A DNA stretch of 64,000 bases from Parcubacteria group bacterium Gr01-1014_30 (lineage in GTDB: Bacteria; Patescibacteriota; Minisyncoccia; Minisyncoccales; 2-12-FULL-40-12), in assembly GCA_007376185.1 (NCBI GenBank), contig VMFS01000003.1:25983-89982 (forward strand), read 5' to 3'. The notes below the pieces were generated by a model. The model worked only from the letters and a program-made list of their open reading frames with translations. It ran no database searches and was not told where the DNA came from. Within the stretch, counting starts at the first letter, position 1. Every line of letters starts with the position of its first letter. Positions 39,615-44,666 of this stretch are shown here, piece by piece. A program made the position numbers and the translations under genes.

Positions 39615-40598
39615 ATGACGACCCCTTTTGTTTCAATAATAATTCCTTGTAGAAACGAGGAGAGATATATAAGTAAGTGTTTGGAAACGATTTTGGCTCA
39701 GGATTACCCCAAAGACAAAATGGAAATTTTAGTTGTTGACGGTATGTCTGAAGATAAAACCAGAGAGATAATTAAAAATTGGAAATTAAAAATTGGAAAT
39801 TTAAGATTATTGGATAATCCCAAAAAAATTGCGCCTTCAGCTCTCAATATAGGCGTAAAAAACAGCACAGGGGAAATAATAATGAGAATGGACGCTCATG
39901 CCCGCTACGAACGAGATTATCTTTCAAAATGCGTGAAGTACTTGAAAGAATACGGCGCTGACAATATCGGAGGAACGATGAAAACCCTGCCCCAAAAAAG
40001 TACCATTGTCGCCAAAGCAATCGCGCTGTCTTTGTCTCACATATTCGGAGCCGCTTCCCGATTTAGAATAGGGGAAAGTCAACCGGTCGCTGAACTTCGT
40101 TCATCTCCTACCCTTCGCTCCGCTCGGGTCAAAGAGGTAGACACTGTTTTTGGCGGATGCTACAAAAGAGAGGTTTTTGACAGAATAGGGTTTTTTAACG
40201 AAAACTTAATTCGTTCCCAGGATTTGGAGTTTAATTTGCGCTTGAAAAGAGCCGGCGGCAAAATAATCTTACATCCTGATATTGTCAGCTATTATTATCC
40301 CAAGCCGACTCTGGGCGAATTTTTCTGGCACAACTTTCAAGACGGCATTTGGTCAATCCTGCCATTGAAGTTTGTCAAAGTTCCTTTTAAGTTAAGGCAT
40401 TATATTCCCTTGATTTTTGTTTTGACTCTGCCCTTGAGCTTTTGGCCGTATATTTTGCTTTCTCTGTTTTTTTCTCTGCAGATTGCCGCTCGAGAGAAAG
40501 ATTTAAGGTTGTTTTTCGCAATGCCCTTGGCTTTTGCGACAAGACATTTTGGTTACGGTTTGGGTTCAATTTGGGGATTAGTTAAGTTAATTTTATGA
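39615..40598 (+). CDS. Family 2 glycosyltransferase carrying an in-frame insert and a 14-nt tandem duplication
   Basis: VSIIIPCRNEERYISKCLETILAQDYP...ILVVDGMSEDKT...RMDAHA. C-terminal TM helices. Confidence 0.75.
   Translation: MTTPFVSIIIPCRNEERYISKCLETILAQDYPKDKMEILVVDGMSEDKTREIIKNWKLKIGNLRLLDNPKKIAPSALNIGVKNSTGEIIMRMDAHARYERDYLSKCVKYLKEYGADNIGGTMKTLPQKSTIVAKAIALSLSHIFGAASRFRIGESQPVAELRSSPTLRSARVKEVDTVFGGCYKREVFDRIGFFNENLIRSQDLEFNLRLKRAGGKIILHPDIVSYYYPKPTLGEFFWHNFQDGIWSILPLKFVKVPFKLRHYIPLIFVLTLPLSFWPYILLSLFFSLQIAAREKDLRLFFAMPLAFATRHFGYGLGSIWGLVKLIL
39770..39806 (+). repeat. 14-nt (2 x 7) tandem repeat aaattaaaaattgg x ~2.5 inside a CDS
   Basis: Read directly. Encodes IIKNWKLKIGNLRLL. Confidence 0.7.
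40083..40130 (+). repeat. In-frame GC-rich module (~48 nt) related to the GCTGAAACTTCG family
   Basis: Encodes PVAELRSSPTLRSARV between RIGESQ and KEVDTVFGGCY. The gctgaacttcgttcatctcct core resembles gctgaaacttcgtctcct. Confidence 0.55.
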
Positions 40599-41236
40599 AA
40601 CGATTTTTTGACTTTACAGCAGCTTTGTTTGGGCTGGTTTTGCTTTCGCCCTTGCTCTTACTTTGCGCAATTTTAATTAAAAGAGAATCGCCGGGACCCG
40701 CTTTTTACAGAGGAATCAGAATCGGCAAAGAGGGCAAACCTTTTAGGATTTTTAAGTTCAGGACAATGGTGCCAGATGCAGAAAATCTGGGCGGCCCTTC
40801 AACAGCGGGCGACGACCCGCGGCTTTTGAAAATCGGCAATTTTCTCAAAAAATACCAACTGGACGAGCTGCCGCAACTGATTAACGTTTTGAAAGGCGGT
40901 ATGAGTTTGGTGGGTCCCAGGCCAGACGTGATAGGAATGGTTGAGCTACTAATAGCGGAGGAAAAAAAAATGATTTTGAGTCAGATACCAGGGATGGTTG
41001 ATTTGTCATCCCTTTGGAATTTTAATGAAGGAGAAAGATTGGCTGGTAAAATAGATCCTCATAAAGTATACTTAGAAGAAATATGGCCAACTAAAAAAAG
41101 GTTACAAATATATTATATCCAAAATCGAAGTACTTGGCTTGATATTAGAATTATTTTTAGAGCAGTATTTAAAATATTTGGTCTTAACTGGTTTGCAATA
41201 AAAATTCATGTTGGAGAAGAAGTGTTTAATTTGTAA
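40595..41236 (+). CDS. Initiating polyprenyl-phosphate sugar phosphotransferase (WbaP/PglC bacterial sugar transferase family)
   Basis: RFFDFTAALFGLVLLSPLLLL...ESPGPAFYRGIRIGKEGKPFRIFKFRTM...DELPQLINVLKGGMSLVGPRP. Confidence 0.8.
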   Translation: MKRFFDFTAALFGLVLLSPLLLLCAILIKRESPGPAFYRGIRIGKEGKPFRIFKFRTMVPDAENLGGPSTAGDDPRLLKIGNFLKKYQLDELPQLINVLKGGMSLVGPRPDVIGMVELLIAEEKKMILSQIPGMVDLSSLWNFNEGERLAGKIDPHKVYLEEIWPTKKRLQIYYIQNRSTWLDIRIIFRAVFKIFGLNWFAIKIHVGEEVFNL

Positions 41237-41633
41237 AAAACAATTTTTGGTGAAACCATATCGGTATATAATTGGAAAGTTTTGTTCGCGCGTGTGTTAC
41301 GGTGCTTTTTTAAAGAGTTATATGAAGGGGCTCCGAAATCCATGGTGGAAAGGCGGTAAGAATAAGAGTACGTGGAGATTAAGAGTGTTAGAAAGAGATA
41401 ACTATACCTGCCAAGGATGTGGAATAAATGATTCTAGGGTTCTTACAGTAGACCATATTAGGAATAAGTCATTGCATAAAGATGTGATATATGAAATTAG
41501 TAATGGTGTCACTTTATGCGCTAATTGCCACTTGATCAAAACTAAAGAAGATAAAGAGCTTAGTGCAGTATTCAGTAAAACTTCAAGTAAAACTGTGCGT
41601 AAAACGCTTTTAGGAAGATATGCCAAACTATAA
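41208..41633 (+). CDS. Free-standing HNH endonuclease with N-terminal zinc ribbon
   Basis: RVLERDNYTCQGCG...LTVDHIRNKS...NGVTLCANCH. N-terminal CLICKK...FCSRVC. The region is AT-rich. Confidence 0.7.
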   Translation: MLEKKCLICKKQFLVKPYRYIIGKFCSRVCYGAFLKSYMKGLRNPWWKGGKNKSTWRLRVLERDNYTCQGCGINDSRVLTVDHIRNKSLHKDVIYEISNGVTLCANCHLIKTKEDKELSAVFSKTSSKTVRKTLLGRYAKL

Positions 41634-41910
41634 AGAAACAGCGAAAGATGCAAGGAAAACAGTCCTCCGCTTAATTTACAACGCCCAGACAAGCCACATA
41701 GGTTCAAATTTTTCGGTAGTGGATATTTTGACAGTTCTTTTTGATAAGGCGGATTTAGACAGAGACAAAATAATCTTGAGCAAGGGATGGGCCGCGGCTG
41801 CTCTTTATTACTTTTTGTGGCGCAAAGGCAGAATTACGGAAAAAGAGCTGAACAGTTATTGTCAACATGTAATGTGCGATGAATGTAAAGGGACGGGCAA
41901 AAAGGCTTAA
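41620..41910 (+). CDS. Transketolase N-terminal (TPP-binding) subunit, 5' fragment, with a foreign CxxCxGxG tail
   Basis: TSHIGSNFSVVDILTVLF...DKIILSKGWAAAALYYFLWRKGRITEKEL is the transketolase N-terminal pattern. Ends with HVMCDECKGTGKKA-stop. Confidence 0.7.
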   Translation: MPNYKETAKDARKTVLRLIYNAQTSHIGSNFSVVDILTVLFDKADLDRDKIILSKGWAAAALYYFLWRKGRITEKELNSYCQHVMCDECKGTGKKA

Positions 41911-41941
41911 CTTTTGCAACTGGATTTGCTATAGTTAATAT

Positions 41942-42757
41942 GTGCCAACAGGAGTTTATAAAAGAACAAAATCAGCTTGGAATAAGGGCCATAAAACGGT
42001 TCACTCTTTTATTTGCCAAACATGTAATCAAGAATTCTTTTCTGAAAGGACAAAAGCAAAATTTTGCAAACGCTCTTGTATAAGAACAGATACACAATTT
42101 AAAAAAGGGCAAAAACCTTTGTATGCATTCTCCAAGGGCATCATTCCATGGAATAAAGGCAAGCGAGAACTTGTTAGAAGGATTTGCCCAACCTGCAAGA
42201 AAGAGTTTTCTTTCGTATTAACAGGTAAGGGAAGCAAAAAAAGAGGTCAGAAATTTTGTTCTGTGGCGTGTAACAGAAGTGATACACAATTTAAAAAAGG
42301 GCATACTTTGAAGCTAAGAATCCTTCATTCTGAAGTAACGAAGAAAAAGTTAAGCGAACTCGTTAAAGAAAGAACTGCTGCAGGAAAACATAATTTTGTT
42401 AAAGGCCATCAATTTGGATTTAAAAAAGGATCTGTCCCTTGGAATAAAGATAAAGATTTCGGCAGCACAGAATATCTTGCAAAAAGAATTTCGTGGTTAA
42501 CACTATATCGTGAATGGCGCCTATCAGTTAAAGAGAAAGATGGATTTAAATGTACAAACTGTGGGGGTAAAAATAATTTAAACGTTGATCATTATCCAGT
42601 TTCTTTAGCAGAGCTTATACGGAAATATAAAATTAAGAATCCACAGGAAACAAAAAAGCGTAGAGAATTTTGGGATATTAAGAATGGTAGAATGCTTTGC
42701 GTTTCGTGTCATAAACAGACACCAACATATGGGAAAAACTTTGTGCGAAAAGTGTAA
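41942..42757 (+). CDS. HNH-type homing endonuclease-like protein (GTG start) inserted within the transketolase gene
   Basis: Repeated zinc-ribbon/NUMOD-like units (FCKRSCIRTDTQFKKGQKP, FCSVACNRSDTQFKKGHT, PWNKGK). C-terminal KCTNCGG...NLNVDHYPVS...MLCVSCH. Confidence 0.6.
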   Translation: MPTGVYKRTKSAWNKGHKTVHSFICQTCNQEFFSERTKAKFCKRSCIRTDTQFKKGQKPLYAFSKGIIPWNKGKRELVRRICPTCKKEFSFVLTGKGSKKRGQKFCSVACNRSDTQFKKGHTLKLRILHSEVTKKKLSELVKERTAAGKHNFVKGHQFGFKKGSVPWNKDKDFGSTEYLAKRISWLTLYREWRLSVKEKDGFKCTNCGGKNNLNVDHYPVSLAELIRKYKIKNPQETKKRREFWDIKNGRMLCVSCHKQTPTYGKNFVRKV

Positions 42758-43289
42758 AGGTAGTGGGAAAATATGGAGTAAATGGATTGGCCTTATAGAA
42801 CCTGTCCACCCCGATCTTGTATTTGCAACAGGGTCTATGGGCGGCGGGCTTCCAGCCGGAGTAGGTTTTGCTTTGGCAAAAAAATTAAAGAAAGAAAAAG
42901 GGACTATTTATGTAGTCGAGTCAGACGGAGGAATGCAAGTAGGTACAACGTGGGAAGCAATCCAAATCGCGGCGCAGTACAAGCTCAACAATTTGGTTTT
43001 GATAGTTGATGACAACTCTTTACAGGCAATGGGCGAGACGAAAAAAATCTTAAACATACATCCTTTGGATAGAAAATTAAAGTCATTTGGCTGGGACGTT
43101 CGAAAAATAAACGGACATAATTTTGCGCAAATTGAAAGGACGATTTCCTTCAGAACAAAAAAGCCTTTGGCCATAATCGCCAAAACAATAAAGGGTTATC
43201 CGATTTCCTTTATGCGTGGAAATAACATTTTTCACTACAAGAACTTGAGCAAACAAGAGTATCTAAAGGCCCTAAAGGAGCTAAATTAA
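42729..43289 (+). CDS. Transketolase N-terminal subunit, 3' fragment, with a foreign CxxCxGxG head
   Basis: Starts MGKTLCEKCKGSGKIWSKW, then ATGSMGGGLPAGVGFALA...VVESDGGMQVGTTWEAIQIAAQYKLNNLVLIVDDNSLQ (TPP-binding motif region). Confidence 0.7.
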   Translation: MGKTLCEKCKGSGKIWSKWIGLIEPVHPDLVFATGSMGGGLPAGVGFALAKKLKKEKGTIYVVESDGGMQVGTTWEAIQIAAQYKLNNLVLIVDDNSLQAMGETKKILNIHPLDRKLKSFGWDVRKINGHNFAQIERTISFRTKKPLAIIAKTIKGYPISFMRGNNIFHYKNLSKQEYLKALKELN

Positions 43290-43331
43290 GGACTTGCGAT
43301 GTCGATAAGATTAAAGTCGATAGATTAAAAA

Positions 43332-43832
43332 ATGGGGAAAATAATAAAAAAACAGGATTCAAGAAGGGTTTTTGTGGAAACGTTGGATAAACTTGCGAGA
43401 AAAAACAAAAAAATAATAGTCGTAATTTGCGATGTGGGCTTTAACTATTTGGATAATCCGAAGTTGAAATTTAAAGTCATAAATTTCGGGGTTACCGAGC
43501 CCACCGCGGCAATAATTTCGGCAGCCCTTGCCTTGGAAGGTTACTCCGTCTGGTTTTATTCAATGCTTAACTTCGTAACTTTCAGGGTTCACGAGCAAAT
43601 AAGGAACGCAATCTGTATGCACAAAGCTCCGGTGAAAATTATTGGAGTGAAGGGTTCAGAGAAATACAAATTTTTGGGTTTTTCGCATAACCTGCTATGG
43701 GAAACAGAAGAAATAGAATGGCTCAAAAAACTTCCCGGAATGAAAACTTATTTGCCAAAAAACAACAAAGCCGTTAAAAAAGCGGTTTTGGAAGCCTACA
43801 AATCAAAAAATCCCTGTTACATAAGGTTGTAG
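43332..43832 (+). CDS. Transketolase C-terminal subunit homolog, short (pyrimidine-binding domain only)
   Basis: RRVFVETLDKLARKNKKIIVVICDVG...INFGVTEPTAAIISAALALEG. Only 166 aa. Confidence 0.6.
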   Translation: MGKIIKKQDSRRVFVETLDKLARKNKKIIVVICDVGFNYLDNPKLKFKVINFGVTEPTAAIISAALALEGYSVWFYSMLNFVTFRVHEQIRNAICMHKAPVKIIGVKGSEKYKFLGFSHNLLWETEEIEWLKKLPGMKTYLPKNNKAVKKAVLEAYKSKNPCYIRL

Positions 43833-43842
43833 AAATAATAAA

Positions 43843-43874
43843 CCCCGGCAGGTCAAAAGACTAGCCGGGGTTTT
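43843..43874. terminator. Bidirectional intrinsic terminator
   Basis: aaa-ccccggc-aggtcaaaagacta-gccgggg-tttt lies between convergent genes 43332-43832 (+) and 44007-44666 (-). Confidence 0.7.
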
Positions 43875-44006
43875 CTCTAATATAGGCCGACTCAAATCGG
43901 CTTCTTCTCAATGTCGTACAGTTCAAGATAATCTTGGTAAGATGAGAGGGCCGGCCCCGCGGAAACGCTTTCCACACCTTCCACCAAAGGAAGACGCTTG
44001 GCTTCG

Positions 44007-44666
44007 TCAAAGCCGTAAGCTAGGAAAAACTTCTGGCAGAACCCTGTCGTTCCCGAAAGCGGTCTTGGTGCCGCTTTCTATCATCTCGTCAAGAGAGGTG
44101 ATGAGAGTAATGGACTCGTTGGAAAGGTTGCCGTAATTCGTCTGCAAACGATGCAACGTTGCCCAGCGATTTTTATCAAGGGGCATGCACCAATAAGCGG
44201 AAAGAAAGATGAACCCCTCCCGTTTGTTGTCGGGATCGGCCGCGTCAAGGGCGGCCTTGCTAACCGTGTTCAAGAACGTGCCAAAGGGAACGCAGTTTGC
44301 GCAAATGATGCGTTTAATCTCTTTAAGCATCACCCGGTGTCTATGAGATACGGGTCGGTTCAAAGCCGGCGTCATGGAAAAGATTTCCTGGGGCGCGTGT
44401 CCCAAAGCCGCAAGTTCCGCAGTTGAGACCGCGGTCTTCTCCAACGAAAGCTCTTCTTGAAGCTCTCGGCGGAAGGTGTTAAGGGGTCCGCTGTCGGTTC
44501 TGGCCGACTCCCCAATCCAGTTTCCTCCAATAAAGTTGAGTTGATGTCTGAATAACTTGATGGGGAAATCACCAGTTTTGCGTTCAAGGAAGATGCGATT
44601 AGGGTTAATTCTGGGATAAATGATTCCAACACTGCCAATGTGCGAAATCCGAGGTCTTTTTTCCAT
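44007..44666 (-). CDS. Hypothetical protein, possible divergent Nudix fold
   Basis: GGNWIGE...FRRELQEEL loosely resembles an expanded Nudix box. Weak. Confidence 0.3.
   Translation of the reverse strand: MEKRPRISHIGSVGIIYPRINPNRIFLERKTGDFPIKLFRHQLNFIGGNWIGESARTDSGPLNTFRRELQEELSLEKTAVSTAELAALGHAPQEIFSMTPALNRPVSHRHRVMLKEIKRIICANCVPFGTFLNTVSKAALDAADPDNKREGFIFLSAYWCMPLDKNRWATLHRLQTNYGNLSNESITLITSLDEMIESGTKTAFGNDRVLPEVFPSLRL

Follow-up and report, generated by a model that had tools for sequence, protein, structure and literature searches.

The subject of this analysis is a split gene in a stretch of 64,000 nucleotides (nt) from Parcubacteria group bacterium Gr01-1014_30 (contig VMFS01000003.1, positions 25,983 to 89,982), which we refer to as the window and whose own numbering is used throughout. 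The gene encodes the thiamine-diphosphate-binding subunit of a transketolase-like enzyme; it is divided in two by a free-standing HNH endonuclease gene, and each half carries at the break one CxxCxGxG cysteine motif, here called a knuckle. The locus comprises six open reading frames (ORFs) on the + strand across 40595–43832: a sugar-transferase gene (Bac_transf, 40595–41236); a first endonuclease gene, HNH1 (141 amino acids (aa), 41208–41633), which matches Pfam HNH at 35.5 bits (E=1e-8, cut-off 21.4); fragment A of the thiamine-binding subunit (96 aa, 41620–41910); the endonuclease gene that splits this subunit, HNH2 (271 aa, 41942–42757); fragment B (186 aa from a conserved ATG, 42729–43289), recognised by its homologs and by a Transketolase_N match of 64.5 bits; and the uninterrupted pyrimidine-binding partner subunit (166 aa, 43332–43832, Transket_pyr 56.7 bits). 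An earlier note, made from the sequence alone, had described fragments A and B with a free-standing HNH gene between them and a second one just upstream, and its reading of the layout holds on both counts. It had also called the locus AT-rich, which is true mainly of the two endonuclease genes, with a guanine-plus-cytosine content of 0.35, and not of the fragments, which at 0.40–0.41 differ little from the 0.42 of the whole window.

The host part of fragment A runs up to ...ELNSYCQ and is followed by the tail HVMCDECKGTGKKA and a stop codon (knuckle 1, 41866–41910), with the CxxCxGxG motif at 41875–41898, whereas fragment B opens with the head MGKTLCEKCKGSGKIW (knuckle 2, 42729–42776; motif at 42744–42767) and continues with SKWIGLIEPVHPD..., its N-terminus also being written MGKTLCEKCKGSGKIWSKW-IGLIEPVHPD.... 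Among all ORFs of at least 40 aa in the six frames of the window, the pattern C..C.G.G occurs exactly twice, three residues before the end of fragment A and five after the start of fragment B, so that each half does bear one motif at the break, as had been proposed. The tails are 14 and 16 aa long, and the first replaces the host residues PG. Both are foreign to the enzyme, since some 100 uninterrupted orthologs (255–280 aa or partial) read through the site without them and without any cysteine motif (...NSYCQPGSKFIGL..., ...NSYCQPGSKFIGLAEP..., ...NSYCQPGSKFIGLAEPIIPEIPAAGGSM...); the same orthologs place the insertion precisely, the knuckle beginning after ...SYCQ, and none has a single CxxCxGxG loop at this position, so that the simple duplication by which the earlier note would have been refuted is not observed. 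In none of 18 knuckles, taken from 10 loci, is either cysteine or either glycine replaced; their codons (TGT/TGC, GGA/C/G/T) do vary, as do the x positions. The imperfect direct repeat of about 33 nt to which attention had been drawn is real (30 nt at 77% identity, 41873–41902 versus 42742–42771) but is most readily explained as a consequence of the same motif being encoded two times over. Target-site duplication was considered as its source and rejected: six of the ten codons specify the same motif residues, and the knuckle pairs of other lineages are far less alike in their DNA.

Fragment A alone scores 17.7 bits against Transketolase_N, below the cut-off of 22, and matches uninterrupted orthologs at 75–84% identity over their N-terminal 82 residues; a fused ortholog reaches 102.5 bits. 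The best solved relative of an uninterrupted ortholog is the split-chain transketolase 6YAK (E=2e-35), which resembles the window family in having its thiamine-binding and pyrimidine-binding subunits encoded by two genes. On the alignment of the two the insertion site of the window (site 1) lies five residues ahead of the GHP-equivalent motif, in a surface-loop region of the thiamine-binding domain adjoining GS(L/M)G, in agreement with the loop position first suggested, and a second site used in relatives (site 2) lies directly behind the GHP equivalent. Where 6YAK has SKGH and GHPD, both split and uninterrupted members of the family (P0009–P0120) have SKGW and GLAEP; the conserved histidines of SxGH and GHP are missing from the whole family, uninterrupted orthologs included. 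The pyrimidine-binding partner, which is 166 aa long in the window and in loci L001 and L004 and 165–167 aa in L086, L109, and L190, is short and was found to have no Transketolase_C domain. The operon neighbours are the sugar transferase on one side and genes for a DegT-type aminotransferase and a dehydratase on the other, which places the split gene within a polysaccharide-synthesis cluster, unlike 6YAK. Because of the SKGW and GLAEP substitutions, the 166-aa partner without a C-terminal domain, and this genomic setting, the product is probably not a classical transketolase but a thiamine enzyme that modifies sugars.

An interrupted gene, in a family without the two canonical transketolase histidines and with a short partner subunit, could be suspected of being a dying pseudogene, a view that we consider hardly tenable and have rejected. 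Intact ORFs are found in dozens of diverged loci, and the uninterrupted orthologs share both the histidine substitutions and the partner of 165–167 aa. For fragments A and B, the partner, and the endonuclease, synonymous divergence (dS) is saturated, nonsynonymous divergence (dN) is 0.1–0.75, and their ratio omega, where computable, is 0.05–0.28 (0.10–0.28 for HNH2 against its relatives), which marks these as working and not decaying genes; all parts are under purifying selection. The decay that the earlier note had allowed for in related strains is thus not what the fragments display.

The arrangement recurs widely among relatives. Among the 120 best relatives of fragment B, 16 protein clusters start with a knuckle (for example MGKTLCKKCKGSGKIW-, MENGNKKKICKSCGGSGKIQ-, MQICKKCNGTGRYLDRF-, and MENKICKKCGGKGEYSEQL-), and a search with fragment A yielded about 38 clusters with cysteine tails of three kinds: tails at site 1, directly behind ...SYCQ (30 clusters, 29 with a perfect CxxCxGxG and one, P0181, with CxxCxGxS); tails at site 2, behind ...GSKFIGLxEP and 11 codons downstream of site 1 (5 clusters); and a degenerate tail, ...KCNCNAK... 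(3 clusters). Cysteine motifs flank the endonuclease on both sides at every locus that is readable on both sides (the window, L004/5, L006, L008, L086, L107/8, L109, L190, L191, L192, and L194); in L107 knuckle 2 had been overlooked by the gene caller, the endonuclease ORF covering it in another frame. In L190 and L192 the gene between the knuckle halves is an unrelated endonuclease (Endonuclease_7 + NUMOD3), and the endonuclease can therefore be exchanged while the knuckle pair stays. The L192 gene (1600–2141) is apparently broken by a frameshift, its N-terminal NUMOD3 part and its nuclease part lying in different frames, which may reflect decay or an assembly error.

Other alleles lack a complete endonuclease. 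In L194, which is split at site 2, only a 56-aa remnant of it remains between the knuckles. In the fused alleles of L001–L003 (protein P0005), which share with the window the gene order of sugar transferase, thiamine-binding subunit, 166-aa partner, and later aminotransferase and dehydratase, there is no endonuclease and the subunit is encoded by one ORF of 293 aa that reads ...NSYCQ-RVICDRCRGTGKKL-MGKTLCKKCNGSGKVW-SKWIGL...; a second fused-knuckle cluster is P0008. The DNA of the fused junction corresponds to the left end of the window insert joined to the right end, with the Met codon of fragment B retained, and the two motifs stand 12 residues apart; such alleles are to be expected if both motifs form one unit. 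All stages of a homing cycle are thus present in related genomes, namely the uninterrupted gene, the invaded and split gene, the gene with a degenerate endonuclease, and the gene from which the endonuclease has been lost and in which the knuckles are fused, and the family therefore forms a compact natural record of that cycle in a bacterial chromosome of the candidate phyla radiation.

The layout recalls endonuclease genes that are carried by introns or associated with inteins, notably the "fractured genes" in which a free-standing homing-endonuclease gene lies between the halves of a split intein (Dassa et al. 2009, PMC2677866), and the interruption might on this model be removed by a group I or group II intron or by split-intein splicing, leaving a continuous mature protein. 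We hold this to be very improbable, and both identities were rejected. A search of Rfam 15 at E<=1 over 40500–44500 on both strands returned no match, a domain search of both fragments and of HNH2 gave neither a Hint nor an intein domain, tails of 14 and 16 aa are far shorter than any intein half, and in the fused alleles the knuckle codons remain in the reading frame and are translated along with the rest of the protein. The earlier claim of an arrangement free of introns and inteins therefore stands.

The endonuclease and the second knuckle are physically interlocked. HNH2 ends in ...T-Y-G-K-N-F-V-R-K-V-stop and overlaps the start of fragment B at 42729–42757, the ATG of fragment B lying inside the conserved TAT-GGN (Tyr-Gly) codons of the endonuclease (acaTATGGg), an arrangement that recurs in L004, L086, L107, L109, and L191. 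HNH2 itself is weak in Pfam HNH (18.4 bits), and in the family alignment its residues C204, C207, H217, N248, C253, C256, and H257 show no or almost no variation. It is longer than its relatives (271 aa versus 180–210 aa) because its N-terminal zinc-finger module (CxxC...CxxxC/TQFKKG) is duplicated in tandem, at 42011–42111 and 42182–42303, the repeats comprising 35 nt at 89% and 31 nt at 74% identity. The inserted unit consists of the knuckle 1 codons with their stop, the endonuclease gene, and a start codon inside the Tyr-Gly codons together with the knuckle 2 codons.

Several observations speak for the mobility of this unit. Uninterrupted, split, and fused alleles occupy the same gene neighbourhood, the insert being present or absent at a precisely defined position. 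The 42 residues that follow knuckle 2 (SKWIGLIEPVHPDLVFATGSMGGGLPAGVGFALAKKLKKEKG, 42777–42902, in host-type codons) are 88–95% identical among insert-bearing alleles, the next 62 residues of which are 58–64% identical to the window, and the same tract is 59–75% identical in uninterrupted alleles that match the rest of the window fragment B at 80–88%; between the window and L001, dN is 0.43 upstream of the insert and 0.11 downstream. This mosaic among alleles is what endonuclease-driven gene conversion with co-conversion of the flank leaves behind, and the movement of the 42-codon tract with the insert across diverged backbones is the signature of homing. The unit spreads between alleles by gene conversion and takes about 42 downstream codons along. 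The endonuclease phylogeny is discordant with that of the host: the window and L004 are 66–82% identical in the host protein and 39% in the endonuclease, and the window and L008 are 45–63% and 52–62% identical, respectively. A head reading MEKTLCKKCNGTGKI is found both at site 1 in P0007/L087 and at site 2 in the divergent paralog of L008, which adjoins a gene predicted from its protein sequence to encode a glucosamine-6-phosphate synthase (GlmS-like). With its two sites, its co-conversion tracts, and the replacement and loss of its endonuclease, the insert is recurrent and not a one-off event.

The order of events could have been different, with the double knuckle as an older in-frame decoration of the loop whose linker was later targeted by endonucleases, so that the knuckles were a landing pad and any help in reassembly incidental. 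Fused alleles without an endonuclease would fit such a history, as would the different in-frame four-cysteine inserts at site 1 of P0112, P0219, and P0222 (the latter two being additionally split at site 2) and the unrelated Endonuclease_7 + NUMOD3 gene between the knuckle halves of L190 and L192. We nevertheless judge it unlikely: knuckle 2 starts within the last conserved codons of the endonuclease; closely similar knuckles accompany homologous endonucleases at two sites and in a divergent paralog; knuckles, endonuclease, and 42-codon flank move jointly across backbones; the backbones nearest that of the window carry no insert; and the Met codon of fragment B still stands at the fused junction, as is expected after deletion of an endonuclease. 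Two of the unrelated in-frame four-cysteine inserts at site 1, KNKTCERCEKLIVTELQFGSTHSHAGCPCECHKA and IIGAECNEHGNNCTGYNCGGGVAFVQ, are found in fragment A proteins that are split at site 2 (L191 778–1203 and L190 579–1034), which suggests successive invasions of the same loop.

The endonuclease-split gene, the composite mobile insert with both knuckle halves, homing with co-conversion, and the full life cycle are well supported, and the question that follows is what the knuckles do. Anti-TRAP binds one zinc through a neighbouring pair of CxxCxGxG motifs spaced by about 10 residues. The best solved match of the fused insert is the cysteine-rich domain of DnaJ (1EXK, E=5.6e-5), followed by yeast Ydj1 and, weakly, by Anti-TRAP (3LCZ); against Pfam it remains below threshold, with 20.4–21.5 bits for DnaJ_CXXCXGXG (PF00684, cut-off 32.7) and 9–16 bits for Anti-TRAP (PF15777, cut-off 32). 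The spacing of 12 residues comes near that of Anti-TRAP, and the insert differs from DnaJ in having two repeats and not four, and from both in having its repeats on different polypeptides. This resemblance to the zinc motifs of DnaJ and Anti-TRAP is what motivates the proposal of a zinc clasp, which, taking motif conservation and the fused alleles together, is the most economical reading. The two CxxCxGxG halves would jointly bind one zinc through their four cysteines, as the adjacent motifs of Anti-TRAP do; the break would correspond to the tip of the loop linking the two knuckles, with the endonuclease sitting in the middle of the linker; the fragment A tail and the fragment B head, translated separately, would fold together around the metal and clasp the halves of the domain; and a working enzyme would be restored without RNA or protein splicing. 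We consider a mobile HNH insert with a split zinc knuckle that clasps the two fragments to be the best explanation of the locus and a reasonably probable one. That a miniature zinc-binding domain is carried, in two halves, by the mobile DNA, and that these rejoin the broken protein non-covalently once the element has landed in the gene, is put forward more tentatively, at slightly under an even chance.

A number of findings weigh against the zinc clasp. In an AlphaFold2 model of the natural fused protein (P0005) the enzyme core is good (mean predicted local distance difference test score, pLDDT, 82.5), but the insert has a pLDDT of 43–56. One lineage (L190 and L192; P0207, P0222, and P0224) has a degenerate first half with CNC and no GxG, and the P0181 cluster has a change of G to S in the motif. 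Other endonuclease-split enzymes, such as NrdA of phage Aeh1, work without an added clasp (as cited in PMC2677866), and a clasp is therefore not strictly required. Finally, the paired insert was not found outside the transketolase-like subunit in the flanks of about 180 endonuclease-relative loci (approximately 100 from metagenomes and genomes and 79 viral, from the best 80 of about 500 relatives per collection) that were scanned for adjoining cysteine tails and heads, and the insert, being known from one gene family only, may not be a general-purpose module. Otherwise the scan flagged only isolated, non-paired motifs (in L083, in L098, and the HNH protein's own cysteine motif in L011), and many of the endonuclease relatives are flanked by genes of one and the same operon or have phage-like surroundings. 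Of the earlier suggestion to look for paired tails in other endonuclease-split genes, it can be said that the tails are recurrent in the transketolase-like subunit and that, among the loci scanned, none in other host genes is credible.

Low model confidence in the insert, degenerate first halves (the CNC tails and P0181), and the adaptor-free fragment complementation known from other endonuclease-split genes (PMC2677866) would all be in keeping with a simpler account, according to which the cysteine-rich tails are tolerated by-products of insertion and the fragments reassociate through the native domain fold alone. We find it rather improbable, less so than splicing or gene death but more so than the landing-pad history, for more than 45 protein clusters keep all four motif residues unchanged on both sides although synonymous sites are saturated, the motif is kept after decay (L194) and loss (L001) of the endonuclease, and neutral tails would be expected to differ in length and composition. 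The zinc clasp remains the reading that we prefer, and it can be set beside several known systems.

T4 gene 39/60 and the split gp43 are intein-less genes in pieces, and to our knowledge neither of them, nor nrdA of phage Aeh1, has been reported to possess complementary tails that bind metal. The latter gene is split by the HNH gene mobE without an intein (Friedrich et al. 2007, PMC1851037, as cited in PMC2677866). The phage cases share with the window a free-standing HNH gene in a coding region and two separately translated fragments that must reassemble; the window case, unlike them, lies in a bacterial chromosome (Patescibacteria). The similarity to fractured genes (PMC2677866) goes further: they too are arranged as the N-terminal host part with one adaptor half, an endonuclease gene, and the other adaptor half with the C-terminal host part, and they too have related alleles with a contiguous adaptor and no endonuclease. 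In contrast to the approximately 100 + 35 aa of split inteins, the adaptor here has 14–16 aa per side; it has no Hint motifs, cannot splice, and stays in the mature protein, and the association of the fragments would be non-covalent and through a metal.

Zinc sites that join separate chains are themselves few. The zinc clasp of CD4/CD8 and Lck is an intermolecular four-cysteine site that holds two chains together. Another site of this kind is the zinc hook of Rad50 (PMC5093744). In both, each partner supplies two cysteines to one tetrahedral and very stable zinc site, as the knuckles of the window would do if the proposal is right; however, these sites belong to separately evolved proteins or to homodimers and have no link to mobile DNA or to the repair of a broken gene. 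Full-text literature searches returned no description of endonuclease splits flanked by cysteine motifs, and we regard the locus as a new variation on endonuclease-fractured genes, found so far in one gene family of Patescibacteria only.

Endonuclease genes in coding sequences are thought to survive within introns or inteins, or where a split is tolerated. The locus suggests a further strategy, in which the element brings with it stop and start codons as well as a very small metal clasp in two parts, and the host protein is rebuilt from two chains. If this is true, selfish endonuclease genes that reside in essential coding sequences would have a third option, next to self-splicing introns and inteins. 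A functional clasp would also explain the repeated invasion of a conserved cofactor-binding loop, would extend the few known intermolecular zinc sites by an assembly function served by a mobile element, and would offer a natural, metal-dependent pair of split-protein tags, 14–16 residues in length, for the reassembly of split proteins.

The upstream endonuclease gene of the window occupies a different kind of position. HNH1 sits precisely where the sugar-transferase gene meets fragment A, overlapping the 3' end of the former by 29 nt and the start of the latter by 14 nt; in L001, where no endonuclease intervenes, a gap of 1 nt separates the two host genes. The sugar transferase of the window ends in ...FKIFGLNWFAIKIHVGEEVFNL (41190–41236), whereas sugar transferases without HNH1 end in ...LKIFQ or ...FKIFK (L001 3890–3903, L004 1360–1375); the HNH1 insertion has therefore lengthened the protein by about 17 residues through read-through.

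These endonuclease genes end with a Tyr codon followed by G (TAT-G), making the ATG of the downstream host gene: the end of HNH1 (...RYAKL-stop) lies over MPNYKE of fragment A, that of HNH2 (...TYGK...) over MGKT of fragment B, and an intergenic relative in L105 (2934–2983) ends in ...TYGRNTR-stop over the Met (ATG) of ...MVETHAK... in an intact subunit ORF. Because these endings create the downstream ATG, the element appears to supply the start codon of the following gene, and probably also translational coupling.

The operon as a whole is a hotspot for endonuclease genes, which are found ahead of the thiamine-binding subunit gene, at two sites within it, in the gap between the subunit genes, and after the second one, with up to three of them per operon (examples are L004 2856–3494, L190 2103–2579, L105 4233–4766, L041, L044, and L089). 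In L009 (2950–4068) an endonuclease relative is apparently fused in frame with the pyrimidine-binding subunit, forming a single ORF of 372 aa that ends in ...SPCYIRI and that could be a natural fusion or the result of a lost stop codon.

Directly after the stop codon of the pyrimidine-binding subunit in the window, and ahead of a convergent gene at 44007–44666, there is a GC-rich hairpin (CCCCGGC...GCCGGGG) with TTTT at 43838–43878. A scan for consensus terminators made no call at this position, probably by reason of the long loop, and the hairpin is likely a bidirectional terminator.

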